The notes below the pieces were generated by a model that saw only the letters and a list, made by a program, of their open reading frames with translations, did no database searches and had not been told where the DNA came from. Position numbers and translations under genes: made by a program. From an uncultured Saccharicrinis sp. (GTDB lineage: Bacteria; Bacteroidota; Bacteroidia; Bacteroidales; Marinilabiliaceae): a stretch of DNA of 64,000 nucleotides. The first letter of the stretch is position 1. The number at the start of each line of letters is the position of its first letter. This document shows positions 21,594 to 40,446 of this stretch, one piece after another. The stretch spans positions 28,490 to 92,489 of the forward strand of contig CAXXQP010000001.1 in assembly GCA_963663905.2 (NCBI GenBank), read 5' to 3'.

Positions 21594-23966
21594 ATGAAAA
21601 AAAATCTAATTATTGTATTGGGTATTGTGTTTGCAACACTGATATCTGTGCCTTCATTCGGTCAGGAGGAGAATGATACCATTAAAGTAAAGAAGCTTTC
21701 GTCTAAAGAAGAAGGCAATCGGAATGTTATGTTGAATGCTGAAAGTAATACCGGCCCGAGGGAAGTTAATATAGGTTTACCTTATAGGGGTGATATTGTT
21801 ATTTTGGAAAATGATGTACCTGTGGTGGCTTATTTTTGGCCTACAATTCCAACTTATGCTTGGCGTATGAGTAATAGTTTTGGAGCAATGGGCTTGCTTT
21901 CCTTCTCTGAGGGTGCACTTACCTGGGGTAAGGTTGGTTATGCAGTGAAGTCTGAAGATAGGGGTGCTTCCAGGAAGTTTCGTGGATATGCTTCTGTATT
22001 TACAGACAATTTTGGATCATCAAAATTTGATGTGACTTTAACTGGTCCGCTTAATAAAAAAGGTTGGGGCTATATGTTAAATGCATACCAACACAACAAC
22101 AAAACCAATGGAACTAATTACCAGTTTACATCATGGGGATCAAAAACTTCGCAGCTTAAAGCAATGATTGAAAAAAAATACTCCAAAGGTTCGGTGCGCT
22201 TGATGTATAAGATGGTAGATTCAAAAAGCGTTTTTAATAACAACGCTCCATTGATGTATTTAGGTGATGGGGAAACAGAAGCCCTTGATAATTTCGATCC
22301 GGGAACAGATTCGTATATAGTGGGAAGCGGGATAGTACCTTATACAGATCCTCGCACTGGTGAAGTCGGATATGCAGATTTAGGAAGTGATAAGTTCAGG
22401 CATTCTGAATCACACAATTTATATTTGTCGGGAAACCATAAGTTCAAAAATGGAATGAAGTTAACCTATAGTACAATGTTCCAAAAAATGAATACTCCTA
22501 TTGGACTTACTTTTCCAATCAGTGCAAATATATATAATAAACAATCAATCTTAGGTCAAACTACCACTGCCTATTATTTAGGTTCGAACAGAGAGTATGA
22601 GGGAGAGTATGCTCAGTTGGTTACAAATCAGCTTATTCCTCAAAGTGATATTACAACCTGGATGACCAGGGCTGAGTTAACAAAGAAAGCGAATGGTCAT
22701 GCTTTGCGCCTGGGACTTACAAACCAATACAATAAAAGAGAATACGAATCTTTAGGAGGACTTTATGTTATATCTGTTGAACCAAATCCGAGTGTACTTT
22801 ATGTTCAGGGAAGTTATTATGGCTATCCGTTTGATCTTACCAGTTCAGAAAACGGTCTGCTGGCAGGTGCAGGAGGTTATGGTGGCCTGACTGATGATTC
22901 GTTTAATAAGACTGCGTTATATGTTTCCGACGATTTCAGCCCGGCACCGTGGTTGGATTTAGGTTTAGGCGGACGTATCGAAAGATTGAGTAAAAAGGAC
23001 AGGCATTATACTGCAGTTTCAGGAAATGAAGTAGTTACTGCAGGTGGATATGTGGATGGTGAATTGAATGACTGGAATTATGTGGGTCTTGGAAACGCTG
23101 TTGTTAAATTGACAAAAAATTTCGGATTGTTAGGTAGTTTTACTTATAACTCCTGGATGGACACTTACTGGGATTATGCATATAAAGACGAGAATAATGT
23201 ACCCGTGGCAGCACCTGGCGAACCTTATCCCAGAACAACCGAGTCAAAGTCATACAGACAAGATGTTATTTACTATGATGGTGGTATTTTCCTGAATTTG
23301 GGTGAAAAGTTGAACATTGTTTCAAAGCTTACACATATCGAGAAAAACGGTATTTACGACTCAGGTTCGCTGATTACATACAAAAAGGATCCAACACAAA
23401 AACAAGATGTGGGACCTTTATTCTATGGTCTGTCTACTACCGGATGGTCAACAGATATTGTTTCCAGCCCATTTAAGAATTTTAATCTACATTTTCTCTT
23501 GACGCTTCAAAGTCCGGAATATAAAGATTATGCATTTACAACACGTTTTTCTGATCCTACCACAGGAGAAGAAGATGTGGAAAGCTACGATTACAACGGT
23601 AAGATTTATCCAGGATTATCTAAAGTATTGATGGAAATTGATCCAAGCTATTCTTTTATGAAAAGAAAAATGAGAGCATGGTTTAGCTTACGCTACTTCG
23701 GTAAGCAGTATGGAAATCGCACCAACGCATTTGAATACAATGGTTGGTGGGAAAACTTTGGTGGATTGGATTATACAATGAGCCGCAATGTTGCAATAAA
23801 ACTACAGGTTGTGAATTTCTTGAATCAAAGAGGGATAAAAGGAGAAGTTCAGGGGGCAGCACAAACTACCAAGGAAGAAGTTGCACAGAACTATGTTGGA
23901 CATCCGATTGTGGCCAGTGCTTTGCGTCCAAGAACGTTTGAGTTGACAGTTAATTTTAAATTTTAG
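21594..23966 (+). CDS. TonB-dependent receptor-like outer-membrane beta-barrel (non-SusC type, short N-terminus)
   Basis: Signal peptide, NRNVMLNA...PREVNIGLP N-terminus, amphipathic strands and C-terminal RTFELTVNFKF. Confidence 0.8.
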   Translation: MKKNLIIVLGIVFATLISVPSFGQEENDTIKVKKLSSKEEGNRNVMLNAESNTGPREVNIGLPYRGDIVILENDVPVVAYFWPTIPTYAWRMSNSFGAMGLLSFSEGALTWGKVGYAVKSEDRGASRKFRGYASVFTDNFGSSKFDVTLTGPLNKKGWGYMLNAYQHNNKTNGTNYQFTSWGSKTSQLKAMIEKKYSKGSVRLMYKMVDSKSVFNNNAPLMYLGDGETEALDNFDPGTDSYIVGSGIVPYTDPRTGEVGYADLGSDKFRHSESHNLYLSGNHKFKNGMKLTYSTMFQKMNTPIGLTFPISANIYNKQSILGQTTTAYYLGSNREYEGEYAQLVTNQLIPQSDITTWMTRAELTKKANGHALRLGLTNQYNKREYESLGGLYVISVEPNPSVLYVQGSYYGYPFDLTSSENGLLAGAGGYGGLTDDSFNKTALYVSDDFSPAPWLDLGLGGRIERLSKKDRHYTAVSGNEVVTAGGYVDGELNDWNYVGLGNAVVKLTKNFGLLGSFTYNSWMDTYWDYAYKDENNVPVAAPGEPYPRTTESKSYRQDVIYYDGGIFLNLGEKLNIVSKLTHIEKNGIYDSGSLITYKKDPTQKQDVGPLFYGLSTTGWSTDIVSSPFKNFNLHFLLTLQSPEYKDYAFTTRFSDPTTGEEDVESYDYNGKIYPGLSKVLMEIDPSYSFMKRKMRAWFSLRYFGKQYGNRTNAFEYNGWWENFGGLDYTMSRNVAIKLQVVNFLNQRGIKGEVQGAAQTTKEEVAQNYVGHPIVASALRPRTFELTVNFKF

Positions 23967-24043: not shown

Positions 24044-24427
24044 ATGAAAAGAGTTAGCATTTTAGTTACAATTATTACCATGTTTGTGTTTGTGCTTACA
24101 GCTCAGGCAGGCGAAAAAGAAGGTGATTATTTTGTTGGAAAATGGAAGTTGTTAGTGGAAGGTACTCCGAACGGAGATAGTGAAATGCTGGTAACTTTTG
24201 AGAGAAACGAAAAGGGCGAAATGATTGGAACTTCGGGCGATGCAGCGGGAGAAACTCCAGCAGTAAAATTTAACCGTGTTGAAGTTACTGATGATTCAGT
24301 AACTGCTTATTGGGTAGCTCAAGGTTATGATGTTTATATTTTCCTTGAAAAAATAGACGACAATAGCGTTGAGGGTTCTTTGATGGATATGTTTGATGCA
24401 TCCGGTTCAAGGGTTGTTGAAGAATAG
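24044..24427 (+). CDS. Secreted hypothetical protein
   Basis: Signal peptide; beta-rich GKWKL...MFDASGSRV; similar to 51048-51434. Confidence 0.75.
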   Translation: MKRVSILVTIITMFVFVLTAQAGEKEGDYFVGKWKLLVEGTPNGDSEMLVTFERNEKGEMIGTSGDAAGETPAVKFNRVEVTDDSVTAYWVAQGYDVYIFLEKIDDNSVEGSLMDMFDASGSRVVEE

Positions 24428-24672: not shown

Positions 24673-26391
24673 ATGAAAATATTTCTACCTGTAATATTGT
24701 TTATTGCATTACTTTTAAATGCATGTAAATTGCCAACAACCCAGAAGCAAACTTTCTGTAATCCGGTTAATTTAAGCTATCGCTTTCAGTTGGATGAACC
24801 TTCCAGACGTGAAGCCGCCGATCCTTCGGTAGTTTGTTTTAAAGGAAACTACTTTATGTTTTTATCCAAGTCAGGAGGTTATTATCATTCAAATAATATG
24901 ATCGATTGGGAATTGATCGAAACAAAAGACCTCCCTGTTGAGGAATATGCCCCTACGGCTATCAATATAAACGACACTGTTTATTTTATGGCTTTAAATC
25001 AAAAGATATATCAAAGTTCTAATCCCATAAGTGGTGAATGGGATATTAAAAATGATTCAATATATGCCAGAACGTTTGATCCAACTATTTTCAGGGATGA
25101 TGATGGCAGAATGTACTTATATCATGGCTTGTCTGCCCGTACCCCAATTAAAGGAATTGAGTTGGATCGAGAATTGTTACAGCCTATAGGAGAAGAGGCA
25201 GATCTTCTTGTATCGAACAGGAAGTATTATGGTTGGGAGCGACGCGGGGATTATAACACTGATACAAAAAGAAGAGCCTGGGTGGAAGGTGCTTTTGTAA
25301 CAAAACATAACAAAAAATATTATTTACATTATTCAGTACCAGGAACCCAATTTAAAAGCTATGGAGATGGGATGTATGTGAGCGAAAACCCACTTGGACC
25401 ATTTAATCTTGCTGAGATCAACCCATTTTCTTATAAACCGGAAGGTTTTATTGCCGGAGCCGGCCATGGTTCTGTATTTAATGATGAATTTGATAATTAC
25501 TGGTATGCAGGTACCATGACTGTTGCCGTAAAACACAGGTTAGAACGGCGGATTGGGATGTTCCCTGCCTTTTTTGATGAAGATGGATGTTTTTACGCAT
25601 ATACCGGTTTTGGAGATTATCCGCACGCTAAGCCTCAAGGTAAAATGAACAGCTATAAAGACTATCATCCTAAATATATGTTACTTTCCTATAACAAACC
25701 TGTAGAAGTTTCATCCTCATTAGCCGATTATCCAAAAGAAAACTGTGTAGACGAAAATGTAAAAACCTCATGGAGTGCATTATCAGGTAGAAAAGGAGAG
25801 TGGCTGATGATAGATCTTGAGGAAGAGAAAGATGTTCATGCCTTGCAAATAAATTTTGCCGATGTTGATACAAAGATTTTTGGTAGGCCTCAAGATATTT
25901 ATTATCAATATTTAATTGAATATTCTAATGATAAAAAGAATTGGACTGTTCTAATTGATAAAACAAATAACATTCAAGATGCCCCACATGATTATATCGA
26001 ACTGGATTCATTTGTAAAAGGAAGATACATACGAATTACTAATTATAAGGTTCCTGATGGAAAATTTGCGATTTCAGGATTCCGTGTATTTGGTTTTGGA
26101 AATGGAAAGAAACCGGGCATTGTGGATCAGTTAACCGTAAAAAGAAATCCGGATGACGGTTGTGTTGTGGATTTAAAATGGAATAAGAATCCAAAGGCCA
26201 TAGGATACAATATTCGTTATGGAACTAATCCAGAGAAGCTGTATTTAAATTATCAGGTATATGATTGTGATTCCTTATCCATCAGAAGTTTAAATAGTAA
26301 GCAAGACTATTATTTTACAATTGATGCTTTCAACGAAAATGGGATAACAATGGGAGAGGATGTGCTTAAATCAGCAAAGAATATAGAATAA
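24673..26391 (+). CDS. GH43 glycoside hydrolase with F5/8 type C (CBM32-like) and FN3 domains, lipoprotein
   Basis: LNAC lipobox, REAADP, FDP and WVEG catalytic motifs; C-terminal discoidin and FN3. Confidence 0.9.
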   Translation: MKIFLPVILFIALLLNACKLPTTQKQTFCNPVNLSYRFQLDEPSRREAADPSVVCFKGNYFMFLSKSGGYYHSNNMIDWELIETKDLPVEEYAPTAININDTVYFMALNQKIYQSSNPISGEWDIKNDSIYARTFDPTIFRDDDGRMYLYHGLSARTPIKGIELDRELLQPIGEEADLLVSNRKYYGWERRGDYNTDTKRRAWVEGAFVTKHNKKYYLHYSVPGTQFKSYGDGMYVSENPLGPFNLAEINPFSYKPEGFIAGAGHGSVFNDEFDNYWYAGTMTVAVKHRLERRIGMFPAFFDEDGCFYAYTGFGDYPHAKPQGKMNSYKDYHPKYMLLSYNKPVEVSSSLADYPKENCVDENVKTSWSALSGRKGEWLMIDLEEEKDVHALQINFADVDTKIFGRPQDIYYQYLIEYSNDKKNWTVLIDKTNNIQDAPHDYIELDSFVKGRYIRITNYKVPDGKFAISGFRVFGFGNGKKPGIVDQLTVKRNPDDGCVVDLKWNKNPKAIGYNIRYGTNPEKLYLNYQVYDCDSLSIRSLNSKQDYYFTIDAFNENGITMGEDVLKSAKNIE

Positions 26392-26440: not shown

Positions 26441-28339
26441 ATGAAAAAGAAATATGCAATAATATATTTACTCTTATTAATTAGTTTGGGATTACATTCC
26501 CAAAAATTTAGAGAAGCTATTCCAAAAGACATTGCTTTAGTGCCAATTCAAAATCAATATAGAAATAGTGTTGATTTGTCGGGAATATGGAAATTTAAAG
26601 TAGATTCCTTAAATAAAGGAATTCAGAATGAATGGTTTAATGGTTTACAAGAAGGCCGACAAATTGCTGTACCCGGGAGTTGGAATGAACAATTTACAGA
26701 TTTAAGGGATTATTTGAACTGGGTGTGGTATGAGAAAGAATTCTTTATCCCCAACTCATGGAAAGGGGATGATATTTATATCAGGGTAAATGACGCAACC
26801 TATTTTGCCAAAATATGGATAAATGGTAAAGAGGTGGGACAGCATGAGGGATGTCATGTTCCCTTTGCATTTAAACTGAATGACTATATACACTGGGATA
26901 GTGAAAATAAGATTTCCATACAGATTGAAAATATTCAATCACCATCAAGGGTGCCTACAGGTGCAGTTGAGGGAAGTTCGTTTGGAAACTATCCCAATGC
27001 AAACTACGATTTTTTCCCTTATTCCGGATTGAACAGGAATGTGGTATTGTATAGCCTGCCAGCTAAAGGATATATCAGGGATATTACTGTTCGTCCGGAT
27101 ATACATAATAACACGGGTATAATGAATATTCAGGTAGAGAAAGTGGGGAACGTAAAATCAGGTAAAATAATAGTTAAAGGCTTTGGACAAACTATTACAG
27201 ATCATATACAATTTAACAAGGATTTTGCAGAAGCAAGAATTGAAATCCCCAATGCCAGATTGTGGAGTCCTGAATCGCCTGATTTATATGATGTTGAAGT
27301 TGTTTTAGAAGGAGGCGGTAAAAAGATTGATGAATATTCTTTAAAAACAGGGGTTAGGACTGTCTCAGTGGATGAGAATCATATATACCTTAATGGTGAG
27401 AAAATATTTCTAAAAGGTTTTGGAAAACATATTGATTTTCCGGTATTAGGAAGGGGAACGGCAGATCCGGTTATGGTTAAGGATTTTGAATTGATGAAAT
27501 GGACAGGGGCCAACTCATTCAGGACAACCCATTATCCATATGATGAGGCCTTTTATAATTTTGCTGACCAGCAGGGATTTATGGTTATTGCAGAAACGCC
27601 GAGTGTGGGATTGATTTTAGGAGGCGATTCGTTACAGTTTCTTGAAAGGCAAAGGATTTGTAAGCAATATTTGCACGAGGTTATTTACCGTGATAAAAAT
27701 CATCCCTCTGTAATTATGTGGTGTGTGGCCAATGAACCTAATGATAAAGCACAACTAGGAATTGGAGGTCCTACTCCTAAAGCAGTTAAAGAAAAAGCAT
27801 ATACATCGTTTAAAGAGCATTTTGATTTAACAAAGGCGTTAGACCCTACGCGATTGGTAATTTATGTAGGTCCTATGATGGGACCCAAATATTGGTTTGA
27901 ATTAACCGATGTTATTGCAATTAACCGGTATTGGGGATGGTACACCTCTCCCGGAAGCATTGAAAATGGATCCACTGTGTTAAGTAGTGAGCTCGACCGC
28001 TTACACCGGAAATTTAAAAAACCTTGTATGGTTACCGAATTTGGATGTGATACCTATGCCGGTATGCATGCAGAAGAACCAGAGATGTTTACGGAAGAAT
28101 ATCAGGTAGAGTTTGTTAAAGCATATTTAGATGTGGCAGATTCAAAGGATTATGTAGCAGGAATGCACATATGGAACTTTGCTGATTTTAAAACAAGTCA
28201 GTCCATTATACGCGTGGGGGGATATAATTTGAAAGGTGTTTTTACCCGGGAAAGAAAACCTAAAATGGCAGCTCATTATCTAAGATCAAGATGGTACAAT
28301 AATAAAGGAAACCAAAATAAAACTACCGATGAAAACTAA
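26441..28339 (+). CDS. uidA: GH2 beta-glucuronidase
   Basis: GFGKH, RTTHYP, acid/base WCVANEP, nucleophile VTEFG, WNFADF and the GUS-specific N-x-KG motif (YNLKGVFTRERKPK). Confidence 0.9.
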   Translation: MKKKYAIIYLLLLISLGLHSQKFREAIPKDIALVPIQNQYRNSVDLSGIWKFKVDSLNKGIQNEWFNGLQEGRQIAVPGSWNEQFTDLRDYLNWVWYEKEFFIPNSWKGDDIYIRVNDATYFAKIWINGKEVGQHEGCHVPFAFKLNDYIHWDSENKISIQIENIQSPSRVPTGAVEGSSFGNYPNANYDFFPYSGLNRNVVLYSLPAKGYIRDITVRPDIHNNTGIMNIQVEKVGNVKSGKIIVKGFGQTITDHIQFNKDFAEARIEIPNARLWSPESPDLYDVEVVLEGGGKKIDEYSLKTGVRTVSVDENHIYLNGEKIFLKGFGKHIDFPVLGRGTADPVMVKDFELMKWTGANSFRTTHYPYDEAFYNFADQQGFMVIAETPSVGLILGGDSLQFLERQRICKQYLHEVIYRDKNHPSVIMWCVANEPNDKAQLGIGGPTPKAVKEKAYTSFKEHFDLTKALDPTRLVIYVGPMMGPKYWFELTDVIAINRYWGWYTSPGSIENGSTVLSSELDRLHRKFKKPCMVTEFGCDTYAGMHAEEPEMFTEEYQVEFVKAYLDVADSKDYVAGMHIWNFADFKTSQSIIRVGGYNLKGVFTRERKPKMAAHYLRSRWYNNKGNQNKTTDEN

Positions 28340-30182
28340 ATATATAATCTTTTCGCTACTCATTTGCTTTGTTATAAACACATATGCTCAGGAGTTTAAA
28401 TATGCAAATCCAAAGGATATGGCTTTATTTCCGAAAAGGAATGAAACCAGGGATACCAGAAAATTATCTGGTATATGGAAGTTTAAGAAAGACGAAAATA
28501 ATATTGGAATTGCAGAAAAATGGTTTAACGGGTTGACCGGTTTTAAAAACATTGCAGTACCGGGTAGTTGGAATGATCAGTTTACCGATATGCGCGATTA
28601 CAGGGATTGGGTATGGTACGAAACAGAGTATAATGTGCCGGGATACTGGAAAGGCGATCGTGTTTATTTACGTATAGGAGAAGCTTCTTATGCTGCAAAA
28701 GTCTGGGTAAACGGGCAAGCGGTAGGAATGCATGAAGGAGGTTTTGTTCCTTTTGCTTTTGATGTTACTTCTTATATCAACTGGAATGGCAGTAACCGAA
28801 TTTCCATTCAGGTAGAAAACTCAATTAAACCCAACCGTTTGCCAGGAGATGGGATTAACAATATAGCTGTTAGCGAATATGATATCTTTCCATATGCCGG
28901 TTTAAACAGGGATGTATGGTTGTATTCTGTTCCTTCTGAAAATTCGATAAAAGACATTACTGTACGCCCTGAAATAAATAAGGATGGTGGTGTTTTAAAT
29001 GTTTTGGTTGAGTTGAGTAAGAAGGATGCTATTGACGGTCAGGTTATCATTTCCGGGGATGGAAATCAAATTGCAAAAAAGATAAAGTTTAATGATGGAT
29101 TTGCACAAATTTCTATAAATATTCCCGATGCCAGATTATGGTCTCCTGAGGATCCTTTTCTATATGATGTAACGGTTAGTATTGGAGGAAACAAAAAGCC
29201 AATTGATGTCTATTCCCTGGAAACAGGTATCAGAACAATAACAACAGACAATAAAAATATCCTGCTAAATGGAAAGCCTGTAATTTTGAGGGGTTTTGGT
29301 AAACAACAGGATTTCCTGATATATGGCAGGGGCAGTGTTCAGCCTTCTATGGTTAACGATATTGAACTGTTAAAATGGACGGGAGCAAATACATTCAGGA
29401 CTTCAGATTACCCGCATGATGAAATGAACTATGCTATTGCGGATAAGGAAGGGATTCTGATAATCGATGAAACTCCTGCAATCGGGTTGTTCAGTTCCAT
29501 TGATACTATTGCATTAAAGCAAATTGAAAACATTTCGTATCAATATCTTACAGAAATGATTATCAGGGATAAAAACCATCCTTCAGTTATTATGTGGAGT
29601 TTGGCCAATGGACCAAAAAATACCATATTAAGTAGTGCTGAGGGTGAGGGAAAGGAAATTGCATACAGCATGTTTGCAAAATATATCAGCAAAGCAAAAG
29701 AAATAGATCCTACCCGTTTGGTGATGTTCATGGGTGATGAAGATGGTTTTACAGATTGGTTTGGTTTATCAGATGTTATCTGTATCAATAGGTTTGAGGG
29801 ATGGAGCAAAAGCAATGGACAAATTGCAGAAGGAGTTAAAAATGTTTGCAAAGAACTGGATAAATTGCATAAAACATTTAATAAACCATGTTTGATGACC
29901 CAGTTTGGCGCAAGTTCTGTTGCTGGTGAACATGCCCTGCAGCCTGAGATGTACTCTGAAGAGTATCAAAACGAGCTGATAAATGCATATTTGGATATGG
30001 CCAATTCCAAAGACTATATTTCGGGTATGATCATTTCCAATTTTGCCGATTATAAAACACCTCAGAGTATTATACGATTAAGAGGATATAATACAAAAGG
30101 CATTTTTACAAGGGATAGAAGACCCAAAGCTGCTGCGCATATGATCAGGGAAAGGTGGACAAAATCAAAATCAGAGTATTAG
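28329..30182 (+). CDS. Full-length beta-glucuronidase paralogue lacking the catalytic glutamates (pseudoenzyme)
   Basis: Collinear with the upstream GUS, but WSLANGP (GGA at 29610), MTQFG (CAG at 29901), RTSDYP, GFGKQ and ISNFADY. Signal peptide and ORF intact. Confidence 0.85.
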   Translation: MKTKYIIFSLLICFVINTYAQEFKYANPKDMALFPKRNETRDTRKLSGIWKFKKDENNIGIAEKWFNGLTGFKNIAVPGSWNDQFTDMRDYRDWVWYETEYNVPGYWKGDRVYLRIGEASYAAKVWVNGQAVGMHEGGFVPFAFDVTSYINWNGSNRISIQVENSIKPNRLPGDGINNIAVSEYDIFPYAGLNRDVWLYSVPSENSIKDITVRPEINKDGGVLNVLVELSKKDAIDGQVIISGDGNQIAKKIKFNDGFAQISINIPDARLWSPEDPFLYDVTVSIGGNKKPIDVYSLETGIRTITTDNKNILLNGKPVILRGFGKQQDFLIYGRGSVQPSMVNDIELLKWTGANTFRTSDYPHDEMNYAIADKEGILIIDETPAIGLFSSIDTIALKQIENISYQYLTEMIIRDKNHPSVIMWSLANGPKNTILSSAEGEGKEIAYSMFAKYISKAKEIDPTRLVMFMGDEDGFTDWFGLSDVICINRFEGWSKSNGQIAEGVKNVCKELDKLHKTFNKPCLMTQFGASSVAGEHALQPEMYSEEYQNELINAYLDMANSKDYISGMIISNFADYKTPQSIIRLRGYNTKGIFTRDRRPKAAAHMIRERWTKSKSEY

Positions 30183-30235: not shown

Positions 30236-30300
30236 ATAAATGAAACGAGCGATGATCAAAAGTTCTCACACACAAGAATCGAAGATCGACGAAGTCAATA
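30236..30300 (+). repeat. ~70-bp interspersed intra-operon element, divergent copy C
   Basis: ATAAATGAAACGAGCGATGA...TTCTCACA...GACGAAGTCAAT shares its 5' motif with copies at 17462-17535 and 60450-60522. Confidence 0.5.
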
Positions 30301-30362
30301 ATTGTTTTTTAGGGGAGTACTATGTGGTAATTGAAAAAAATAAATACATGAAATACAATATT

Positions 30363-32615
30363 ATGAAAACATTTGCAGCGCTTGTAATAGCTATAGTGAT
30401 GGCAAGCTGTGTTAAAACACAGCAGGATGATGTGAAAAAGGATATTTTCATTTCTGGTTTGATGCAGAAGATGACCATTGAGGAGAAAATTGCTCAGTTA
30501 AATTTAATTACGCCGACTGCAGGAACTGGTCCTTTTAAAACCAAAAGAGCCATTGTGAAATTACAGGAAGGCGAAGCAGGTAATGTATTGTCCTTAAGAG
30601 GAAATCCCAAAAGGATTCACGATAAACTGGCTTTTGCAGATAGTACCCGATTACGCATTCCTATATTAAATGCTTTGGATATTATTCACGGCTACAAAAC
30701 AATTTTTCCTATTCCTCTGGGTTTATCTTGTTCATGGGATACGCTGCTTATAGAAAAAACAGCAAGAATTGCCGCCATAGAAGCTACTTCAATGGGGTAT
30801 CACCAAACGTATTCGCCTATGGTTGATATTACCAGAGACCCAAGATGGGGACGCGTTATGGAAGGATCTGGTGAGGATGTTTACCTTGGTAGTTTAATTG
30901 CCAGGGCAATGGTTAAAGGATACCAGGGTGATGATTTAAGTGATCCTACTTCATTGATGGCATGTATTAAGCACTTTGCTGCTTATGGAGCCGCTGAGGC
31001 CGGAAGAGATTACAATACTACAGATATGAGCAGGCTTACTTTATATCAAAATTATTTACCTCCTTATAAAGCTGCAGTTGATGCAGGAGCTGGTAGTATC
31101 ATGACTTCTTTTAATGATATTGAAGGTATCCCTGCTACTGCAAATAAATGGTTACTTACTGATTTGTTAAGAAACGATTGGGGATTTAAAGGTATTGTTC
31201 TTAGTGATTACAATTGCGTTGCTGAATTGATACCACATGGTGTGGCTGCAGATTATAAAGAAGCTGTAAACAAAGCCATTGACGCGGGCTTGGATATGGA
31301 TATGGCCAGTGAAGGATATGCTACTTTTTTAAAAGAACTTCTTGATGAGGGTAAAATCAGCATGGAACAACTGGATAAAGCATGTCGCAGAGTGTTGGAA
31401 GGAAAGTATGACTTAGGATTATTTTCAGATCCGTATAGAAATTATGATCCGGAAAGATATAAAAAGGTCATTTTAACAGATGAAAATAAAGAGGTTGCCA
31501 AATTAGCCGTATGTAAATCAATTGTTTTATTGAAGAATGAAAACCAGACCCTACCATTAAAAAAAGACAGTAAAATTGCTCTGATTGGGCCATTGGTTCA
31601 GGATCAATATGAAATGATGAGTATGTGGTCTCCTGATGGACAAAATGATAGTGTGATCAGTATTCTTGACGGTATAAAAAATGTAAATCCAAATGTTGAA
31701 TGTAGCATTGGAACTCAGCTAACAGATGATCCCGGTTATTTAAAAAACTTTGGCAAATTTGATAAAGAAGATCAGAACGACCTGGTGAATGAAGCTGTAA
31801 AAATTGCTCAGAAATCAGATGTAATTGTTGCAGTATTGGGAGAATCAAGAAGTATTTCAGGAGAGGCCAAATCAATGAGTGATATTTCACTTCCAAACTG
31901 TCAGGTGCAATTATTAAAGAAACTTAAAGCCACAGGAAAGCCGGTTGTATTGGTATTATTAAATGGGCGTCCGCTTACATTAGAAGATAATCTTGATTAT
32001 GCAGATGCTGCATTGGTAGCATGGCGTCCGGGTACAATGGCCGGAGCAGGTTTAGCTGATGTTTTGTTCGGAAACTATAATCCTTCAGGTAAGCTTACAA
32101 TGACTTTCCCAAGATCCATAGGACAAGTTCCTATTTATTATAATCATAAAAATACAGGGCGTCCATTTAAAGATGGACAAAGAGGTGCATTTAAGTCGCG
32201 CTATTTAGATGAAACCAATTCTCCTCTTTTCCCATTTGGTTATGGACTAAGTTATACCACATTTAAATATGGAGATATTGATCTAAGCGATACCTTATTG
32301 ATTGGAGCAAATAATAAATTAAATGTTAGTATTAAAATAACCAATTCGGGAAGTTATGCCGGAGAGGAAACAGTTCAACTGTATGTTAACGATCCGGTTG
32401 CATCAATTGCGCGACCTGTAAAAGAATTGAAGAAATTCAGGAAAGTATTTTTAAAACCAGGAGAATCAAAAGAAATTACCTTTTCAATGACCACGGAAGA
32501 TCTTAAGTTTTTTAATAACGATCTTCTGTGGGATTGGGAATCAGGAAAGTTTAAGGTATATGTGGGAACAAACTCAGAAGATGTAAAAGAATCAGAGTTT
32601 TTTTGGAATAAATAA
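30363..32615 (+). CDS. GH3 beta-glucosidase (BglX-like), lipoprotein
   Basis: RDPRWGR, KHFAAYG, nucleophile SDY and C-terminal FN3-like. Start moved from 30240 to 30363 (MKTFAALVIAIVMASC lipobox). Confidence 0.92.
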   Translation: MKTFAALVIAIVMASCVKTQQDDVKKDIFISGLMQKMTIEEKIAQLNLITPTAGTGPFKTKRAIVKLQEGEAGNVLSLRGNPKRIHDKLAFADSTRLRIPILNALDIIHGYKTIFPIPLGLSCSWDTLLIEKTARIAAIEATSMGYHQTYSPMVDITRDPRWGRVMEGSGEDVYLGSLIARAMVKGYQGDDLSDPTSLMACIKHFAAYGAAEAGRDYNTTDMSRLTLYQNYLPPYKAAVDAGAGSIMTSFNDIEGIPATANKWLLTDLLRNDWGFKGIVLSDYNCVAELIPHGVAADYKEAVNKAIDAGLDMDMASEGYATFLKELLDEGKISMEQLDKACRRVLEGKYDLGLFSDPYRNYDPERYKKVILTDENKEVAKLAVCKSIVLLKNENQTLPLKKDSKIALIGPLVQDQYEMMSMWSPDGQNDSVISILDGIKNVNPNVECSIGTQLTDDPGYLKNFGKFDKEDQNDLVNEAVKIAQKSDVIVAVLGESRSISGEAKSMSDISLPNCQVQLLKKLKATGKPVVLVLLNGRPLTLEDNLDYADAALVAWRPGTMAGAGLADVLFGNYNPSGKLTMTFPRSIGQVPIYYNHKNTGRPFKDGQRGAFKSRYLDETNSPLFPFGYGLSYTTFKYGDIDLSDTLLIGANNKLNVSIKITNSGSYAGEETVQLYVNDPVASIARPVKELKKFRKVFLKPGESKEITFSMTTEDLKFFNNDLLWDWESGKFKVYVGTNSEDVKESEFFWNK

Positions 32616-32624
32616 GATAATAGT

Positions 32625-32648
32625 GTACGGTGGATATTATCACCGTAC
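32625..32648 (+). terminator. Hairpin GTACGGTG-gatattat-CACCGTAC with T-rich tail
   Basis: Seen directly between the GH3 and GH78 genes. Confidence 0.55.
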
Positions 32649-32678
32649 GCTGTTTTTAGAATAACAAAATTATAAACC

Positions 32679-35600
32679 ATGTTGATTAGAAATAGTAACG
32701 CTAGATTATATGTATTGTTTTTGTTTGTTTTAGGTCATGTATGTGCCTTTGCAAATGAAAAAGGAAGTACCCCCGTTGGTTTAAAGTGCGAATACATGGT
32801 AAACCCAATTAGTATGGGTAAAATGCATCCACAGTTATCATGGCAAATTAGCACAGAAACAAGTAACTGGTTACAATCTGCATATCAGATTATTGTTTCT
32901 TCAAGTTCAAATTTATTGAATGAACAAAACTGTGATATTTGGGATAGTAAAAAAGTTGAATCCGGAGAATCGGTTAGTGTACTATATAATGGACCTTCCT
33001 TAGAAAGTAGAAAACGTTACTATTGGAAAGTTCGGGTGTGGGATAATGCAGGAATGGTTTCGGAATGGTCAGATGTAGCTTACTGGGAGACTGCTAACTT
33101 AAACCAAAATGAATGGACTGCAAAATGGATTTCACCAGCTCACTCCAATCAGGAAGATTTGGATAACATAAAATGGATTTGGTTGCCAAATCAGGATGCA
33201 AAAAAAGTCCCAAGAAATACGGTGGCTTCTTTCAAACTAAAATTCAATATTAAAGATCTACCCAAGGTCGCTTCTATGCAAACTGTAGCTAGAGGTGATT
33301 ATGAGTTATTTGTAAATGGTCATTTTGTTGATAGAAAAGAAACTGAATGGCAGTGTTTTGAACGTCAGGATATTATTGGGTATCTGAAACCGGGAGAGAA
33401 TACGGTTGAGGTTGTGGTGGCTGTTCAAAGGACTGCATCTTTTAAGCAAAGTGATGGAAAGCCTTTATCGGGAAGGTATGGTACTTTTGCCGGATTGTTA
33501 ACCATAGAAGGACAGGAAGGTAAGATTCAGAAATATCCAACCTCCTGTGGAAAATGGATGGCTAAATCTCAAAATGAGAATGAATGGAACACGGTTAAAG
33601 TGGTTGGTGAATTAAATGAACCTGCTTTTGGTTTAGATCCGGGGCCATTATCAGAGCCTGTTTCTTTGTTGCGTAATCAATTTAAGTTAAAAAAAGCAAT
33701 TAAATCGGCTCGTTTATATATTACTTCCTTAGGTAGTTATCGTGTTTATTTTAATGGGAACAGGGTTGGTGAAGATGTTTTAACCCCTGAGTTTACTAAT
33801 TACAATAAACGAATTACTTATCAAACCTATGATGTAACCACTTTACTTAAAAAAGGTAAGAATGTGGTTGGTGCTATGCTGGGTGATGGCTGGTACGGAA
33901 GTCCGCTTGGATGGAATGGCGAACACGATGTATTTGAGAACGGTCCAAATCAGTTATTAGCTGAAATATGTATTCAATATAAAGATGGATCTGTTGAAAA
34001 AATAGTTACTGATGATAAATGGAAATCCAGTCGCTCACAAATTCTAAAATCAGAAATATACTCCGGGGAGTTTTATGATGCGCGGTTAGAACAAGAAGGC
34101 TGGAATACAGTAAAATTTGATGATGCCAATTGGGATAGTGTTAAACTAACCCGGGCAGGATATGGTCGCTTATTCCCGCAGGTAACAGAGCCTGTTAAAA
34201 TAACCCAATGTGTTAACCCCATAGAAATACGAAAAATAGGGGAGCAAAAATGGCTCTTAGATATGGGGCAGAACCTTGTGGGATGGTTAAAAATTAAGGT
34301 AAGCGGAAATGCCGGACAGGTAGTTAAAATGCGTTATGCAGAGATTTTAAAATCTGCCGACAGTATTTATGTTGATAATTTAAGGGGCGCCACAGCAACT
34401 AATAGCTATGTATTAAAGGGTAACGGACAAGAAGAGTATGCTCCTTATTTTACATTCCATGGTTTTCGATACGTTGAGATTTCCGGATACCCTGGGGATC
34501 TGACTCAAAATGATGTTGTTGCAGAAGTGATCAGCTCAGTAGATACACCTACAGGTGTAATTGAAACATCAAGCGACCTCGTTAATAAAATGTACTCTCT
34601 GGGAATATGGGGACAAAAAAGTAATTTTATTAGTGTTCCAACAGATTGCCCTCAGAGAGATGAGCGTCTTGGTTATACAGGTGATGGACAGGTTTTTTGG
34701 CGAACAGGAACTTATAATTTCAATATAGCTGCTTTTACACACAAGTGGTTATACGATATAGTAGACGAACAAACAGAAGAAGGCGGATTCACAAATACGG
34801 CTCCGGCTGTACCTAAAAGTAACCGAAAAAGTGGAGCAGCCGGTTGGGAGGATGCCGGCGTTATTGTACCATGGTCATCTTGGAAACAATATGGCGATAA
34901 AGGGATAATCATCGAAAACTGGCAGGCTATGGTTCGCTATTTGAAATATGTGGAGAGCAATAGTAAAGATTATATTCGTCCGGGTAGTTTCTTAGGTGAT
35001 TGGTTGGCACCGGATATGACTACTCCCAACAATTTAATCAGTACATGTTATTTTGCAATGACGACTCAAATGATGTCGGAGATGGCCAGTGCTATTGGAA
35101 AAGAAGAAGAAGCTCAGCAATATGACAGGTTGTACAGCAATATCAGGAAAGCCTTTCAGGAAAAATTTATTACTCAAGAGGGAGTTGTAGGTTCCGGAAG
35201 CCAGACTTCTTACGTATTGGCATTAAAGGCTCAAATGATTCCTGATACATTAAAGGAAAAAGTAGTTAATAACTTAGTAAGTGCCATAAAAGAAAGAGAT
35301 TGGCATGTATCAACAGGTTTTTTAGGGACTCCGTATCTGCTTTTTGTTTTATCAGAGAATGGCAGGTCTGATATTGCGTATAAACTGTTGCTTAACGAAA
35401 CTTTCCCTTCGTGGGGATATATGATAAAAAATGGAGCCACAACATGGTGGGAACATTGGGACAGTGATACTGGTGATCCCAAAATGAATTCATTTAACCA
35501 CTATGCATTTGGGTCGGTTGTAGAATGGATTTATCGCGAAATGTTAGGTATTAATGTGGATACCAATTCATCAGGATTTAAAGAGATTTTTATTTCACCG

Positions 35601-35849
35601 GAATTCGATTTGTCAGGAAATATATCGCATGCGAAAGGAAGTTATAATTCTGTTTATGGAGAAATAGTTTCAGAATGGCAAATGAATTCTGATAATACAG
35701 TGACATTAAAAGTAAATATCCCTGCTAATACAACGGCAACAATAATAAAGCCCCAGATGGCTAAAAACTTTGTAAAGGATAATAAGGTGGTAGATGCTGA
35801 GAAAATTGAAGTTGGTTCGGGTATGCATGAATTTGTTATAAGTCTTTAA
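32679..35849 (+). CDS. GH78 alpha-L-rhamnosidase
   Basis: DMGQNLVGW, FHGFRYVE, PTDCPQRDERLGYTGD, GATTWWEHW and SFNHYAFG. Confidence 0.95.
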   Translation: MLIRNSNARLYVLFLFVLGHVCAFANEKGSTPVGLKCEYMVNPISMGKMHPQLSWQISTETSNWLQSAYQIIVSSSSNLLNEQNCDIWDSKKVESGESVSVLYNGPSLESRKRYYWKVRVWDNAGMVSEWSDVAYWETANLNQNEWTAKWISPAHSNQEDLDNIKWIWLPNQDAKKVPRNTVASFKLKFNIKDLPKVASMQTVARGDYELFVNGHFVDRKETEWQCFERQDIIGYLKPGENTVEVVVAVQRTASFKQSDGKPLSGRYGTFAGLLTIEGQEGKIQKYPTSCGKWMAKSQNENEWNTVKVVGELNEPAFGLDPGPLSEPVSLLRNQFKLKKAIKSARLYITSLGSYRVYFNGNRVGEDVLTPEFTNYNKRITYQTYDVTTLLKKGKNVVGAMLGDGWYGSPLGWNGEHDVFENGPNQLLAEICIQYKDGSVEKIVTDDKWKSSRSQILKSEIYSGEFYDARLEQEGWNTVKFDDANWDSVKLTRAGYGRLFPQVTEPVKITQCVNPIEIRKIGEQKWLLDMGQNLVGWLKIKVSGNAGQVVKMRYAEILKSADSIYVDNLRGATATNSYVLKGNGQEEYAPYFTFHGFRYVEISGYPGDLTQNDVVAEVISSVDTPTGVIETSSDLVNKMYSLGIWGQKSNFISVPTDCPQRDERLGYTGDGQVFWRTGTYNFNIAAFTHKWLYDIVDEQTEEGGFTNTAPAVPKSNRKSGAAGWEDAGVIVPWSSWKQYGDKGIIIENWQAMVRYLKYVESNSKDYIRPGSFLGDWLAPDMTTPNNLISTCYFAMTTQMMSEMASAIGKEEEAQQYDRLYSNIRKAFQEKFITQEGVVGSGSQTSYVLALKAQMIPDTLKEKVVNNLVSAIKERDWHVSTGFLGTPYLLFVLSENGRSDIAYKLLLNETFPSWGYMIKNGATTWWEHWDSDTGDPKMNSFNHYAFGSVVEWIYREMLGINVDTNSSGFKEIFISPEFDLSGNISHAKGSYNSVYGEIVSEWQMNSDNTVTLKVNIPANTTATIIKPQMAKNFVKDNKVVDAEKIEVGSGMHEFVISL

Positions 35850-35856
35850 TATTTAT

Positions 35857-38580
35857 ATGATGATAAATAAAATAACCAATAATTTCAACAAGATATTTTT
35901 TGTCTTTATACACTTTACATTTTTATGTCAGGTAGCTTATGGAGAATCAAATGATAAACACAGTGGTTCAGATGCAGATATTCCTGCTACCAGGCATGGG
36001 GAGCGAACAGTTATTACCATAAATAATGGCTGGGAATTTAAACTTGATAATGAGAAATCATTTACAAAAGTCAACCTGCCTCATACCTGGAATGCAGAGG
36101 ATGCAGTTGATGATAAAAAAAATATATACAGAGGGGAAGGGACATATAAAAAAAATCTGAAATTAAACTTAACCCAAGGGCAGAAGGCATTTTTGTATTT
36201 CGAAGGTGCCAACCAGGTTGCCCGTTTATCGGTTAATGGCCAATTTATAGGCGAACATAAAGGAGGCTACACCTCTTTTGCCTTTGATATAAGTAACGCT
36301 GTTGGTGCAGGAGATAATCAGATTGAAATAGCAGTCTCCAATCAATACGATGTAAACATCCCTCCGTTATCCATGGATTATATTTTTTATGGGGGTATTT
36401 ATCGCGATGTATATTTAGTGGTAACCAATCCTGTTCATTTCGATTTGATGAATTTTGGCTCAGAAGGAATATTGATATCAACCCCTAAAGTATCAAAGAA
36501 AGTTGGAGAAGTTATTGTTCAAGCCCGGCTGAAAAATGAAATGAATAAAGTACAAAAAATCAAGCTAATCCATCGTTTGATTGCTCCCAATGGAAAGGAA
36601 ATTAAACGTTTGGAGAAAGAAGTGGCACTATCGGCTAATGCTGGCATTTCTCAAGTTGATATGGCAGCGAAAATTGCTTCTCCTGAACTGTGGTCGCCGG
36701 ATTCACCCTCACTTTATACTGTTGTTTCAGAATTGATAAATCCAGGAACAGGTGAAGTTGTTGATCAGGTTGTGAATCCTCTTGGGTTTCGATGGTTTAG
36801 TATGGATCCAAAGAAAGGCTTCTTTTTAAATGGAGAGCATCTTAAGCTTACAGGCGTTTGCAAGCACCAGGATTTTGAAGGTATTGGCAGTGCAGTAAGT
36901 AATGATTTGTTTATTCGCGATTTGCAGATGATAAAGGAGATGGGAGCTAACTGCTACCGAAGTTCTCATTATCCACAAGACCCAAGTGTTTTTGATGCTT
37001 GTGACCGTTTAGGACTATTGGTTATTGATGAGATACCTTTGGTAAATTCAATTACAGAAAGTAGTGATTTCGCCCATAATAGTAATCAAATGATGACGGA
37101 AATGATTATGCGAGACTATAATCATCCATCCATATTTTCATGGGGTTTGAGCAATGAAATAGGAATGACGGGGGGAGGCCCTATTGGCTCTGAAAGTGGG
37201 AAGGCCTACGATAAGTTTTTAAATCAAATTATTACATCATTGGATAGTACGTCAAAAGTATTGGATCCTAATCGCTTAACAATGCAGTCAGTGCACTATA
37301 AAACGGCACGATATGAATCGTCTGATGTAATAAAAATTGGGGATTTTATTGGTTCTAATTTATATATGGGTTGGTATGTAGGTGAGCCAGATTCATTGGT
37401 TGAAGTAGCAAAAGGTATTCAAAGCCTTTCAGGCGATAAGCCTATCGTAATTTCAGAATATGGGGCAGGAGCGGATCCTCGTTTAAGAAGCGACAATCCT
37501 CGTAGATATGATTTTACCGTCGATTATCAAACCCTGGTTCATAAAAAGTGGTTGAATAGCTTTTTGAACAATGATTTTGTATCTGCGTCATTTGTGTGGA
37601 ATTTTGCGGACTTTTGTTCTCCATTTCGTGGAGATGCAATGCCTTTTTATAATAGTAAAGGGCTTGTTGCTGCCGACAGGACGCCTAAAGATGTGTTTTA
37701 TTTTTATAAAGCAGCCTTGGCTAATAAGCCAACCATAAATATTGGCATGAAAAGTTGGAAATACCACAGTGGTGTTGAAACTGCACCTAGATTATGCTCT
37801 AAAAAAATTGAAGTTTTTGCAAATACACAAAATGCAGAATTATATATAAATGGAAAGTCATTAGGCAAAAAAGCAGTTAACGATTTTAGTGCTGAATGGG
37901 AAGTGCCCTTTATAAATGGGCAAAATTTAATTGAAGTTGCAGGCATAGATGAAAGCGGATCCACAGTAAAGGATTATCACTCCTTAGAGTTTAATTTGAT
38001 ACCGTCAAACCTAAAGGAAATGAAGCCTGGTGACGTAATCAGGGTAAATGCCGGTAGTTCTGCTTATTTTCTGGATGAAGATGAAAAGTCGGTATGGATA
38101 CCGGATACAGAGTACTCCAAGGGAGGTTTTGGCTTTGTTGGAGGTATGTTTTTAGTTACAAATAATAACCGGGTTGACTATAGGGAAGGGGTAGATCAGA
38201 ATATCAATAAATCAGTTAAGGATCCTCTGTTACAAACGCAGCGAATAGCAACAAGCCATTTTAAAGCTGATGTTCCCGAAGGGCAGTACGAAGTAACTTT
38301 TTGTTTGGCTGATTTAGCTGTAAGAGCCGGTAGGTTGGTTTATGAATTAGGCAGTGAAAATGATATTACCCAATCCAATATCTCTGGAAAGTATAAATTT
38401 GATATCATAATTAATGGACAGAAAGTGGCTGAAAAATTAAATCCGAGGAAACTAGCAGGTAAACTTACTGCTTATGAGTTTTCAGCCATAGTATATTCTA
38501 AAGGTGGATTGGATATTGAGTTTAAATCAAATGAAGAAACTACTTGTGTTAATGCAATAAAATTGCGGAAACTTAAATAA
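35857..38580 (+). CDS. GH2 beta-galactosidase/glycosidase with C-terminal malectin-like domain
   Basis: LPHTWN, RSSHYPQ, intact SNEI and SEYGAG; malectin-like C-terminus. Confidence 0.9.
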   Translation: MMINKITNNFNKIFFVFIHFTFLCQVAYGESNDKHSGSDADIPATRHGERTVITINNGWEFKLDNEKSFTKVNLPHTWNAEDAVDDKKNIYRGEGTYKKNLKLNLTQGQKAFLYFEGANQVARLSVNGQFIGEHKGGYTSFAFDISNAVGAGDNQIEIAVSNQYDVNIPPLSMDYIFYGGIYRDVYLVVTNPVHFDLMNFGSEGILISTPKVSKKVGEVIVQARLKNEMNKVQKIKLIHRLIAPNGKEIKRLEKEVALSANAGISQVDMAAKIASPELWSPDSPSLYTVVSELINPGTGEVVDQVVNPLGFRWFSMDPKKGFFLNGEHLKLTGVCKHQDFEGIGSAVSNDLFIRDLQMIKEMGANCYRSSHYPQDPSVFDACDRLGLLVIDEIPLVNSITESSDFAHNSNQMMTEMIMRDYNHPSIFSWGLSNEIGMTGGGPIGSESGKAYDKFLNQIITSLDSTSKVLDPNRLTMQSVHYKTARYESSDVIKIGDFIGSNLYMGWYVGEPDSLVEVAKGIQSLSGDKPIVISEYGAGADPRLRSDNPRRYDFTVDYQTLVHKKWLNSFLNNDFVSASFVWNFADFCSPFRGDAMPFYNSKGLVAADRTPKDVFYFYKAALANKPTINIGMKSWKYHSGVETAPRLCSKKIEVFANTQNAELYINGKSLGKKAVNDFSAEWEVPFINGQNLIEVAGIDESGSTVKDYHSLEFNLIPSNLKEMKPGDVIRVNAGSSAYFLDEDEKSVWIPDTEYSKGGFGFVGGMFLVTNNNRVDYREGVDQNINKSVKDPLLQTQRIATSHFKADVPEGQYEVTFCLADLAVRAGRLVYELGSENDITQSNISGKYKFDIIINGQKVAEKLNPRKLAGKLTAYEFSAIVYSKGGLDIEFKSNEETTCVNAIKLRKLK

Positions 38581-38591
38581 AGTTGGGGGAC

Positions 38592-39608: not shown

Positions 39609-39642
39609 GCAAAATAATAAATCAACACAATATTTTTTAAAC

Positions 39643-40446
39643 ATGAGAATTTTAAACAAAACAATAATAGTAACAGGAGCAGCAAACGGAATTGGTCGTG
39701 AAATCACCTTGCAATTATTAAATAAGGGTGCACATGTAATAGCATTGGATATAAGCATGAAAGCTCTTGTTGAACTGGTTGATGCCACAGCAGAGAAAAG
39801 AATTAATTTAACTACATATGTTGTTGACATAACAGATAAAGAGGCGATCTCACAAACCCGAGACAAAATAATGCAGAAGTTTCAGTCTGTTGATGGAGTA
39901 ATTAATAATGCCGGAATCATTCAGCCTTTTACCAAGTTAAATGAACTTAGTTATGAGGTGATTGAAAAAGTGATGAATGTTAATTTTTGGGGTTGCTTAA
40001 ACATCACAAAAGCATTTCTACCTGATTTGTTAAAGCAAGAAGAAACCCATTTGATCAACGTTTCGAGTATGGGAGGATTTTTACCAGTTCCAGGACAAAC
40101 CATTTATGGTGCCGCTAAAGCCTCAGTAAAGTTGATGACCGAAGGTTTGGCTCAGGAACTAAAGAATACGGGTGTAAGAGTATCTGTTGTTTTTCCCGGG
40201 GCTGTAGGTACCAACATAATGGAAAATTCAGGCATTGACAATGCTCCTAAAATGGAAACATCAGGAAAAGCTTCAATGGTTTTGTCACCAAAGAATGCAG
40301 CAGCACAAATAATCAAAGGGATTGAAAAAAATAAGACCCGAATTTTTGTAGGAAAGGATTCAAAAATTATGGATTGTCTATACCGGATTAGTTCCGGGTT
40401 TGCATCCAATTTAGTTGGTAAACAAATGAAGAAACTTTTGGAATAG
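39643..40446 (+). CDS. SDR-family oxidoreductase
   Basis: TGAANGIG, NNAG and YGAAK motifs. Confidence 0.93.
   Translation: MRILNKTIIVTGAANGIGREITLQLLNKGAHVIALDISMKALVELVDATAEKRINLTTYVVDITDKEAISQTRDKIMQKFQSVDGVINNAGIIQPFTKLNELSYEVIEKVMNVNFWGCLNITKAFLPDLLKQEETHLINVSSMGGFLPVPGQTIYGAAKASVKLMTEGLAQELKNTGVRVSVVFPGAVGTNIMENSGIDNAPKMETSGKASMVLSPKNAAAQIIKGIEKNKTRIFVGKDSKIMDCLYRISSGFASNLVGKQMKKLLE

Follow-up and report, generated by a model that had tools for sequence, protein, structure and literature searches.

In the present work we describe a tandem pair of glycoside hydrolase family 2 (GH2) genes that belongs to a sugar-degradation operon of a marine member of the Bacteroidota and was found in a 64,000-nucleotide stretch of DNA from an uncultured Saccharicrinis species (hereafter the window). 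The first gene encodes a canonical periplasmic beta-glucuronidase (GUS), GUS-A, and the second a full-length GUS-fold paralogue, GUS-B or the twin, from which both catalytic glutamates have been lost. Judging from its residues, the twin is a pseudo-glucuronidase that is kept by selection. The role that we tentatively favour for it, with a confidence falling somewhat below an even chance, is that of a periplasmic non-catalytic uronate-binding partner of GUS-A, most likely as a subunit of the GUS oligomer.

A preliminary description of this DNA, made from its letters, had reported two tandem GH2 paralogues with an overlap of 11 nt, the first one carrying all GUS hallmarks and the second one having 617 amino acids without a frameshift, and each of these statements was borne out. 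Both open reading frames (ORFs) were uninterrupted, no frameshift or stop codon being present in the twin, and their coordinates are given in Table 1. The two proteins were 51% identical over the full length in a pairwise alignment, and the three GH2 domains of Pfam (PF02837, PF00703 and PF02836) were detected in both. The best solved relatives of both proteins in a PDB sequence search were beta-glucuronidases (E ~1e-105 to 1e-112), the twin being 34-36% identical to solved GUS. When the NCBIfam equivalog NF007538 (cut-off 544 bits) was applied, GUS-A passed with 554.5 bits and the twin failed with 500.1 bits. Translational coupling of the two genes is probable in view of the overlap, from which we also infer their co-expression.

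The E. coli UidA reference sequence (EcGUS), in which 12 hallmark residue numbers were in agreement, was aligned to GUS-A and the twin. All hallmarks were present in GUS-A, namely H296, H330, E413, Y468, W471, Y472, E504, W549, N566 and K568 (EcGUS numbering, used for all positions below unless a residue is given by its number in the twin). The corresponding residues of the twin were Q, D, G, F, W, S, Q, S, N and K, so that five further hallmark residues (H296, H330, Y468, Y472 and W549) are substituted in addition to the two glutamates. The motif changes listed in the preliminary description (GKH to GKQ, RTTHYP to RTSDYP, NEP to NGP, NRYWGWY to NRFEGWS, TEFG to TQFG and WNFADF to SNFADY) were all found, including the acid/base and nucleophile codons at 29610 and 29901, and their assignment to H296, H330, E413, Y468, Y472, E504 and W549 of EcGUS agreed with our alignment. 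The N-x-K motif and the TR.R.PK stretch, which had been described as retained, were read in the twin as well. A new acidic residue was also found at the position of Met447, which we take to belong to the aglycone or +1 site.

A homologue search over 5.8 billion protein clusters revealed a sharp break in identity among the homologues of the twin, with P0001-P0010 being 61-99% identical and all others at most 55%. The residues Q296, G413, F468, Q504 and S549 were shared by P0001-P0009 (64-99% identity) and by the Saccharicrinis locus L002; within this dead clade the position of His330 was occupied by Asp in ten sequences and by Gly in one, and that of Tyr472 by S, T, N or I. Orthologues of as little as 64% identity still showed the dead state, which was counted in five or more separate genomes or metagenome bins. 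DNA context was available for five further loci with a dead twin, L001 (Plebeiibacterium marinum D04), L002 (a metagenome-assembled genome) and L007, L008 and L009 (metagenome contigs), and for four loci in which the second gene is more distantly related to the twin (L010, L011/L012, L013 and L014), while a 94%-identical orthologue, P0002, was known by protein only. The preliminary description had held that orthologues keeping both glutamates would speak for a lesion of one strain. The close orthologues (P0001-P0009 and L002) do not keep them, whereas the distant members P0010, P0011, P0012, P0015 and P0075 do, from which it follows that a lineage of GUS in second position had already diverged when the dead state appeared within it.

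The ratio of nonsynonymous to synonymous substitution rates (dN/dS) was calculated by the Nei-Gojobori method (NG86) for the three comparisons that were unsaturated at synonymous sites, all deeper pairs being saturated. For the window against L001 the ratio was 0.085 for the twin and 0.067 for GUS-A, for the window against L002 it was 0.080 and 0.066, and for L001 against L002 it was 0.094 and 0.132, respectively. Within the dead clade the protein distance between twins was on average 1.17 times that between the GUS-A partners. Because of these low ratios and the similar protein distances, the twin is under purifying selection about as strong as the active enzyme GUS-A. The earlier proposal of a selected pseudoenzyme, and not of a gene in decay, thus held up on both the conserved dead state and dN/dS values of 0.080-0.094, far below 1.

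A sequencing error or a strain-specific decay, which had been named in advance as what could overturn that proposal, was not the case. Over positions 26000-30600 zero differences were seen in the Logan contigs of three runs (X1, X3 and X6; word depth ~19-100x), and the Gly428 codon was the same in independent assemblies. In a fourth, near-identical strain, X9, the twin differed at 13 sites, none of them in the Gly428 or Gln525 codons, and GUS-A differed at none. The X9 differences extended from 28774 to 29689 and comprised six amino-acid changes and six synonymous sites; one of the changes, L330P (twin numbering), is a return to the residue of the other orthologues. Their restriction to the twin could reflect a recombination patch or a locally relaxed constraint, the numbers being too small to decide. 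An exact copy of 26441-30182 also turned up in public runs whose labels name four or more different coded organisms, as well as in marine metagenomes, which suggests that the bacterium repeatedly enters the sequencing projects of other organisms as an associate or contaminant. In the species-representative genome collection, an exact 40-mer taken across the A/B junction had no match.

The pairing of the twin with GUS-A was found to extend well beyond the dead clade. In a neighbour-joining tree of 129 sequences all genes located downstream of a GUS fell into one clade of 18, and their upstream partners into a separate clade of 19. The database clusters retrieved by a profile of the twin clade numbered exactly 16, all scoring at least 1049 bits; after a gap, the partner clade followed from 958 bits downwards. 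These first non-twin matches were the sole support for a local tandem duplication; with midpoint rooting of the tree, the twin clade, on a long branch, stands opposite the rest of the GUS. A gene of the twin clade lay directly downstream of a canonical GUS of the partner clade in all ten loci with context, two further A/B pairs were found on shared contigs (P0075/P0044 and P0012/P0038), and the A-A and B-B distances were correlated with r = 0.93. Plebeiibacterium marinum D04 carries two complete A/B loci, each with a pair of orphan genes upstream, one with a dead twin (L001, scaffold 44, P0003) and the other with a twin that retains the glutamates (L013, scaffold 3, P0011).

No member of the twin clade had His at position 330, and the active site of every member was non-canonical. 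Both glutamates were kept in P0010, P0011, P0012, P0015 and P0075, the last of which carried K568L. L011B (P0013), the sister of the dead clade, showed E504Q, W549S and Y472G with E413 kept, and the dead clade showed the L011B changes plus E413G. L014B (P0020) carried an independent E504G and also K568M. Read along the tree, catalysis is predicted to have been lost stepwise in this lineage, whose members stay paired with an active GUS, and the nucleophile disappeared at least twice (E to G in L014B, E to Q in L011B and the dead clade); such repeated independent loss indicates that catalysis is dispensable for the gene in second position. The 11-nt overlap was found in the window, L002, L007, L008, L009 and L011, that is, in six of the seven loci in which the B gene has E504 replaced by Q, and was absent from L010 and L013, where the second gene has both glutamates, and from L014.

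At the C-terminus of the twin (30159-30182) a short tail follows the RERW motif. In all dead-clade twins and in L011B this tail ends in an aromatic residue (…SEY, …TKY, …NGF, …DQF, …ENF, …IKF, …MRF and …LDF being examples), an ending not seen in the glutamate-retaining members of the twin clade or in the GUS-A partners. It may be a docking tail.

Conservation of the pocket was analysed with 173 alignment columns whose invariance among 111 canonical GUS reached 97% or more, and these were compared with 11 dead-clade sequences. Among them 135 (78%) were kept in all 11 sequences, 16 were changed and re-fixed, and 22 were variable. Changes affected 12 of the 20 pocket columns and 26 of the 153 others (odds ratio 7.3, p = 9e-5), and 10 of the 16 re-fixed columns were pocket positions. 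The re-fixed changes were F164I, H296Q, H330D, Y333H, E413G, V444M, M447E, Y468F, E504Q, W549S and F554Y, together with five further ones in the N-terminal domain, whereas D163, N412, N466, R467, W471, R562, N566 and K568 were kept in every dead-clade sequence. Several bulky or charged pocket residues were replaced by smaller ones (G for E413, S for W549, S or T for Y472) or by ones still capable of hydrogen bonding (Gln at E504 and H296, Asp at H330). Since the changes are concentrated in the pocket and mostly re-fixed, the site appears to be remodelled and not abandoned. By this pattern of substitutions, constraint is relaxed on the aglycone side and the carboxylate-recognising core is kept, as would be expected of a pocket that binds a uronate-containing ligand without chemistry. 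One dead-clade member, P0005 (L007, 10001-11854), was the only one with Gly at the position of His330 and with Thr at that of Met447; across the dead clade the two new acidic residues at these positions are present or absent together.

With one 57-sequence alignment as common input, AlphaFold2 (AF2) monomer models were made of the twin and of GUS-A, and the mean predicted local distance difference test (pLDDT) score was 83.4 for the twin and 85.8 for GUS-A, with a predicted template modelling (pTM) score of 0.87 for each. The twin model superposed on solved GUS structures with TM scores of 0.82-0.88. In both proteins the loops that follow GKH/GKQ and TEFG/TQFG had a pLDDT below 50, and pLDDT was low or reduced in the loop preceding D163 and in that around R562. 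With respect to EcGUS, the Loop 1 region was 15 residues shorter in both proteins in the alignment, and the NEP motif was followed by an insertion, which measured 13 residues for GUS-A and 9 for the twin. These features would place both proteins among the open-site GUS classes that are tied to carbohydrate substrates and signal peptides (PMC6712278). A hydrophobic N-terminus ending in ...AQ|[ED]F was recognised by eye in all twin orthologues and likewise in GUS-A, and the Cys in the signal peptide of the window twin was absent from L007B, L008B, L009B, P0006 and P0008, about half of the orthologues. The cleavage site and the unconserved Cys point to signal peptidase I and to no conserved lipobox. 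GUS-A and the twin are thus probably soluble periplasmic proteins that are exported separately, and any complex between them would form in the periplasm.

The twin, a long-established tandem copy of a periplasmic beta-glucuronidase of GH2, has lost its acid/base (E to G) and its nucleophile (E to Q). Taken as a partner of GUS-A, it would bind a terminal or capped glucuronic-acid oligosaccharide in a widened pocket without cleaving it, would be produced at a constant ratio to GUS-A by way of the overlap of stop and start codons, and, exported by its own signal peptide, would act together with GUS-A in the periplasm. There it would most likely take subunit positions in the GUS oligomer and either hold or present fragments of branched rhamnose/glucuronate glycans, or stabilise or tune the active subunit. 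GUS enzymes are homo-oligomers. We rank this role first because GUS is oligomeric and most of the invariant positions outside the pocket are kept in the twin, and because of the strict pairing, the overlap that accompanies E504Q and the repeated loss of the nucleophile.

Several observations, however, weigh against the partner role. Adjacency, overlap and correlated divergence are equally expected of two independent proteins of one operon, and P. marinum L001 has no overlap (a 7-nt gap is present instead), yet its twin is kept. The AF2 models are silent on the shape of the twin pocket, since confidence in the active-site loops was low for both proteins, and the pocket list and the residue roles come from the structural literature on E. 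coli GUS and LacZ, not from coordinates. The invariance of the dead-clade pocket was only marginal (16 of 23 positions against 47% elsewhere, p = 0.053), compared with 23 of 23 against 59% in the GUS-A partners (p = 1e-5). Seven pocket positions drift in the dead clade, the equivalents of H330, Y333, M447, F448, Y469, Y472 and D508, of which M447, F448, Y469, Y472 and D508 presumably lie on the aglycone side. Finally, the loss of K568 in P0020 and P0075 indicates that not all members of the wider twin clade bind uronate.

A bolder form of the partner role, possible though doubtful, is that the pair represents a bacterial glycosidase "prozyme", a defined periplasmic hetero-tetramer in which the non-cleaving pocket of the twin docks capped or branched glucuronate chains, for instance Rha-alpha-1,4-GlcA or 4-O-methyl-GlcA on arabinogalactan-like glycans, for GUS-A and the rhamnosidase encoded nearby. 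The clade of 16 clusters would then record the loss of H330, followed by that of the nucleophile and then of the acid/base, plus a second independent loss of the nucleophile. The grounds given above for a partnership are also compatible with a stand-alone periplasmic glucuronide binder; such a soluble, lectin-like protein would not associate with GUS-A and would sequester imported oligosaccharides that bear glucuronate, hand them to transporters or enzymes, or feed a sensor. The kept carboxylate-binding triad and several sugar contacts, an E504Q change that is isosteric, the twin's own signal peptide and a pocket that exceeds the remainder of the protein in conservation would all suit it, and the region also encodes an AraC-type regulator and a periplasmic binding protein, which implies that ligand sensing does occur there. 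A three-domain scaffold of 600 amino acids would nevertheless make a costly lectin, strict pairing with one GUS clade and a conserved overlap are compatible with it but would be unneeded, and the 135 of 173 invariant columns kept, many of them outside the pocket, suggest that the whole GUS architecture still matters, plausibly through oligomer surfaces; on balance we regard a stand-alone binder as rather unlikely.

It is improbable that the twin is still an enzyme, either using Asp360, Glu471 or Asp174, or acting by another chemistry such as beta-elimination on 4-substituted uronates, or on another substrate. Three new acidic residues are fixed or nearly so in the dead clade (G174D, H330D and M447E), the joint loss of Asp360 and Glu471 in L007B may mean that the two are functionally coupled, residues able to neutralise the carboxylate, as a lyase would require, are kept, and purifying selection is as on a real enzyme. 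On the other hand, the retaining mechanism of GH2 requires both glutamates, neither new acid is present in L007B, which is otherwise well conserved (67% identity, ordinary substitution rate), and neither a polysaccharide lyase nor a non-canonical hydrolase on a GH2 scaffold was found in our literature searches. His330, moreover, we take from LacZ and GUS to be a hydroxyl-binding position that does not lie at the anomeric carbon. The preliminary description had also suggested that the twin perhaps replaces SusD, that is, that it is a SusD-like surface glycan-binding protein filling the place of an absent SusC/SusD pair; this we disfavour as very improbable. No SusC/SusD was found among the larger ORFs of the window and the twin plausibly binds a glycan, but its cleavable signal peptide without a conserved lipoprotein Cys, like that of GUS-A, makes surface anchoring unlikely, and a putative outer-membrane barrel, together with a small partner gene, is already encoded in every one of the ten loci. 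Least credible of all is a decaying pseudogene, a strain lesion or a sequencing error. Seven hallmark residues are lost and all 13 single-nucleotide differences of X9 within 26441-30182 lie in the twin, but against decay stand the intact frame, three identical assemblies, the same substitutions down to 64% identity, a dN/dS of 0.08-0.09 and the 78% of GUS-invariant columns that are intact.

The surroundings of the pair were also inspected. Two orphan genes, which encode a putative outer-membrane beta-barrel of 790 amino acids and a small secreted protein, head all ten recovered A/B loci (L001 3263-5635 and 5715-6098; L007 3375-6171; L009 3375-6169; L010 2812-5778; L011 3433-6213; L013 4699-7451; L014 5075-7813). 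The 790-amino-acid protein carries a signal peptide and ends in ...VNFKF in the manner of outer-membrane barrels, and its P. marinum homologue is automatically labelled "TonB-dependent receptor" in UniRef and hypothetical at NCBI. No match to either orphan protein was obtained in Pfam, NCBIfam or by PDB sequence search, weak thresholds included. A scan of 30 window ORFs (all of at least 127 amino acids) gave no Pfam match to SusC or SusD, and the orphan genes may constitute an undescribed outer-membrane import pair of glycan loci that lack SusC/D.

An AraC-type regulator lies upstream of the orphan pair, and the GH43 gene with an F5/8 type C domain directly upstream of GUS-A was syntenic in L007-L012, an ORF of 572 amino acids being present at the same place in L001. 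The genes that follow the twin encode, in order, a GH3, a GH78 alpha-L-rhamnosidase, a GH2 with a malectin domain, an AP_endonuc_2 TIM barrel (isomerase-like) and an SDR; a second GH43, a second GH3, a GH35, an SDR and the UxuA mannonate dehydratase of glucuronate catabolism come next, and past UxuA a periplasmic binding protein and a phosphofructokinase. Across the annotated loci a GH3 gene was found after the A/B pair in all, a rhamnosidase-type gene in all but L010, and GH43 in most. The presence together of a rhamnosidase, galactan-type enzymes, a glucuronidase and glucuronate catabolism suggests that Rha/GlcA-decorated glycans, for example the side chains of arabinogalactan proteins, are the likely substrate. 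In L008 the GH78 and GH2-malectin genes are each split (9969-13167, 984 and 83 amino acids; 13175-15879, 317 and 546 amino acids) with the A/B pair intact, and these are either assembly frameshifts or real pseudogenes. The first part of the window (1-12900) has a G+C content of 24-31%, against ~36% in the glycan cluster, and contains a ParA-like ATPase (5966-6703, - strand), an IS66-family transposase (7133-8488, + strand) and a Toprim-domain protein (10848-11915, - strand); it looks like a mobile-element insertion beside an RND efflux operon (13190-18901, - strand).

Table 1. Features of the GUS-A/twin pair and of the adjoining gene cluster, in window coordinates; residue numbers are those of the twin unless marked EcGUS
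Feature	Position	Strand	Basis or state in orthologues
Putative outer-membrane beta-barrel, 790 aa (orphan)	21594..23966	+	
Secreted protein, 127 aa (orphan)	24044..24427	+	
GH43 with F5/8 type C domain, directly upstream of GUS-A	24673..26391	+	Pfam
GUS-A, canonical periplasmic GH2 beta-glucuronidase, 632 aa	26441..28339	+	ORF, Pfam, hallmark residues, NF007538
11-nt overlap ATGAAAACTAA, twin start codon and GUS-A stop codon	28329..28339	+	
Twin (GUS-B), full-length GH2 GUS-fold protein without both catalytic glutamates, 617 aa	28329..30182	+	
N-terminal signal peptide of the twin MKTKYIIFSLLICFVINTYAQ, type I	28329..28391	+	Judged by eye
Gln326 for EcGUS His296 (GKH to GKQ)	29304..29306	+	Q in 11/11 dead-clade sequences
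Asp360 for EcGUS His330 (RTTHYP to RTSDYP)	29406..29408	+	D in 10/11 dead-clade sequences, G in L007B
Gly428 (GGA) for acid/base Glu413 (NEP to NGP)	29610..29612	+	G in 11/11 dead-clade sequences
Glu471 for EcGUS Met447, new acidic residue	29739..29741	+	E in 10/11 dead-clade sequences, T in L007B
FEGWS for YWGWY	29793..29807	+	Y468 to F fixed, Y472 to S/T/N/I variable, W471 kept
Gln525 (CAG) for nucleophile Glu504 (TEFG to TQFG)	29901..29903	+	Q in 11/11 dead-clade sequences, also in sister lineage L011B
SNFADY for WNFADF	30036..30053	+	EcGUS W549 to S and F554 to Y, both fixed
Uronate-carboxylate site kept: Arg583 (R562), Asn588 (N566), Lys590 (K568)	30075..30098	+	Invariant in dead clade
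Rest of the same-strand cluster	30240..48467	+	Pfam, NCBIfam

If the twin binds substrate or hetero-oligomerises, it would represent a new kind of accessory protein in polysaccharide-utilisation systems, and its clade would offer a natural series of intermediates from an enzyme to a binding subunit. The dead P. marinum orthologue P0003 (UniRef100_A0AAE3SL90) is named "Beta-glucuronidase" in UniRef and has a generic GH2 name at NCBI, the latter because it misses the equivalog cut-off; P0010, a twin-clade member that retains the glutamates, is named beta-glucuronidase at NCBI. Homology-based GUS censuses would thus overcount activity, and filters for catalytic residues would never see dead twins. 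P. marinum D04 is a cultured organism and, with its two kinds of A/B locus, provides a ready experimental comparison. In the literature we found no report of a dead GH2 or GUS paralogue, or of a bacterial glycoside hydrolase pseudoenzyme coupled to an active twin, and inactive members are not discussed in a recent survey of GH2 subfamilies.

In comparison with active GH2 GUS, such as E. coli UidA and the gut-microbial enzymes that have a short Loop 1 and an insertion in the Loop 2 region, the twin has the same three-domain fold and length and keeps the N-x-K carboxylate motif, R562, D163 and N412. Unlike them, it lacks E413, E504, H296, H330, Y468, Y472 and W549 and falls below the equivalog cut-off, and the active-site criteria of GUS censuses would presumably filter it out. 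It resembles the GUS classes that process polysaccharides in having a signal peptide and a place in a carbohydrate-degradation cluster (PMC6712278). Dead enzyme paralogues kept by selection are well known, and cases among glycosidases have been described from eukaryotes. Beetle GH28 polygalacturonase-like proteins and plant BETA-AMYLASE9 come from expanded families in which some members have no catalytic residues and yet are important for the digestion of polysaccharides or its regulation (PMC6549527, PMC8774843); they are eukaryotic, belong to other folds and families, and have no operon or translational coupling with an active enzyme. In trypanosomatids a dead paralogue, the prozyme, is an obligatory partner subunit of AdoMetDC, deoxyhypusine synthase or PRMT1, born by duplication of an oligomeric enzyme, with interaction and activation shown experimentally (PMC5201418, PMC3663545, bioRxiv 10.1101/776112). 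These prozymes are the model for a hetero-oligomer of GUS-A and the twin, although they are eukaryotic, cytosolic and not glycosidases. Heparanase 2 belongs to a different glycoside hydrolase family, GH79. It is a glucuronidase homologue that does not degrade substrate but is functional and binds heparan sulfate (PMC7879983, PMC10368643). Although it is a vertebrate extracellular protein, is neither encoded beside nor coupled to an active paralogue, and implies no hetero-oligomer, heparanase 2 is the closest functional analogy to the twin for binding without cutting.

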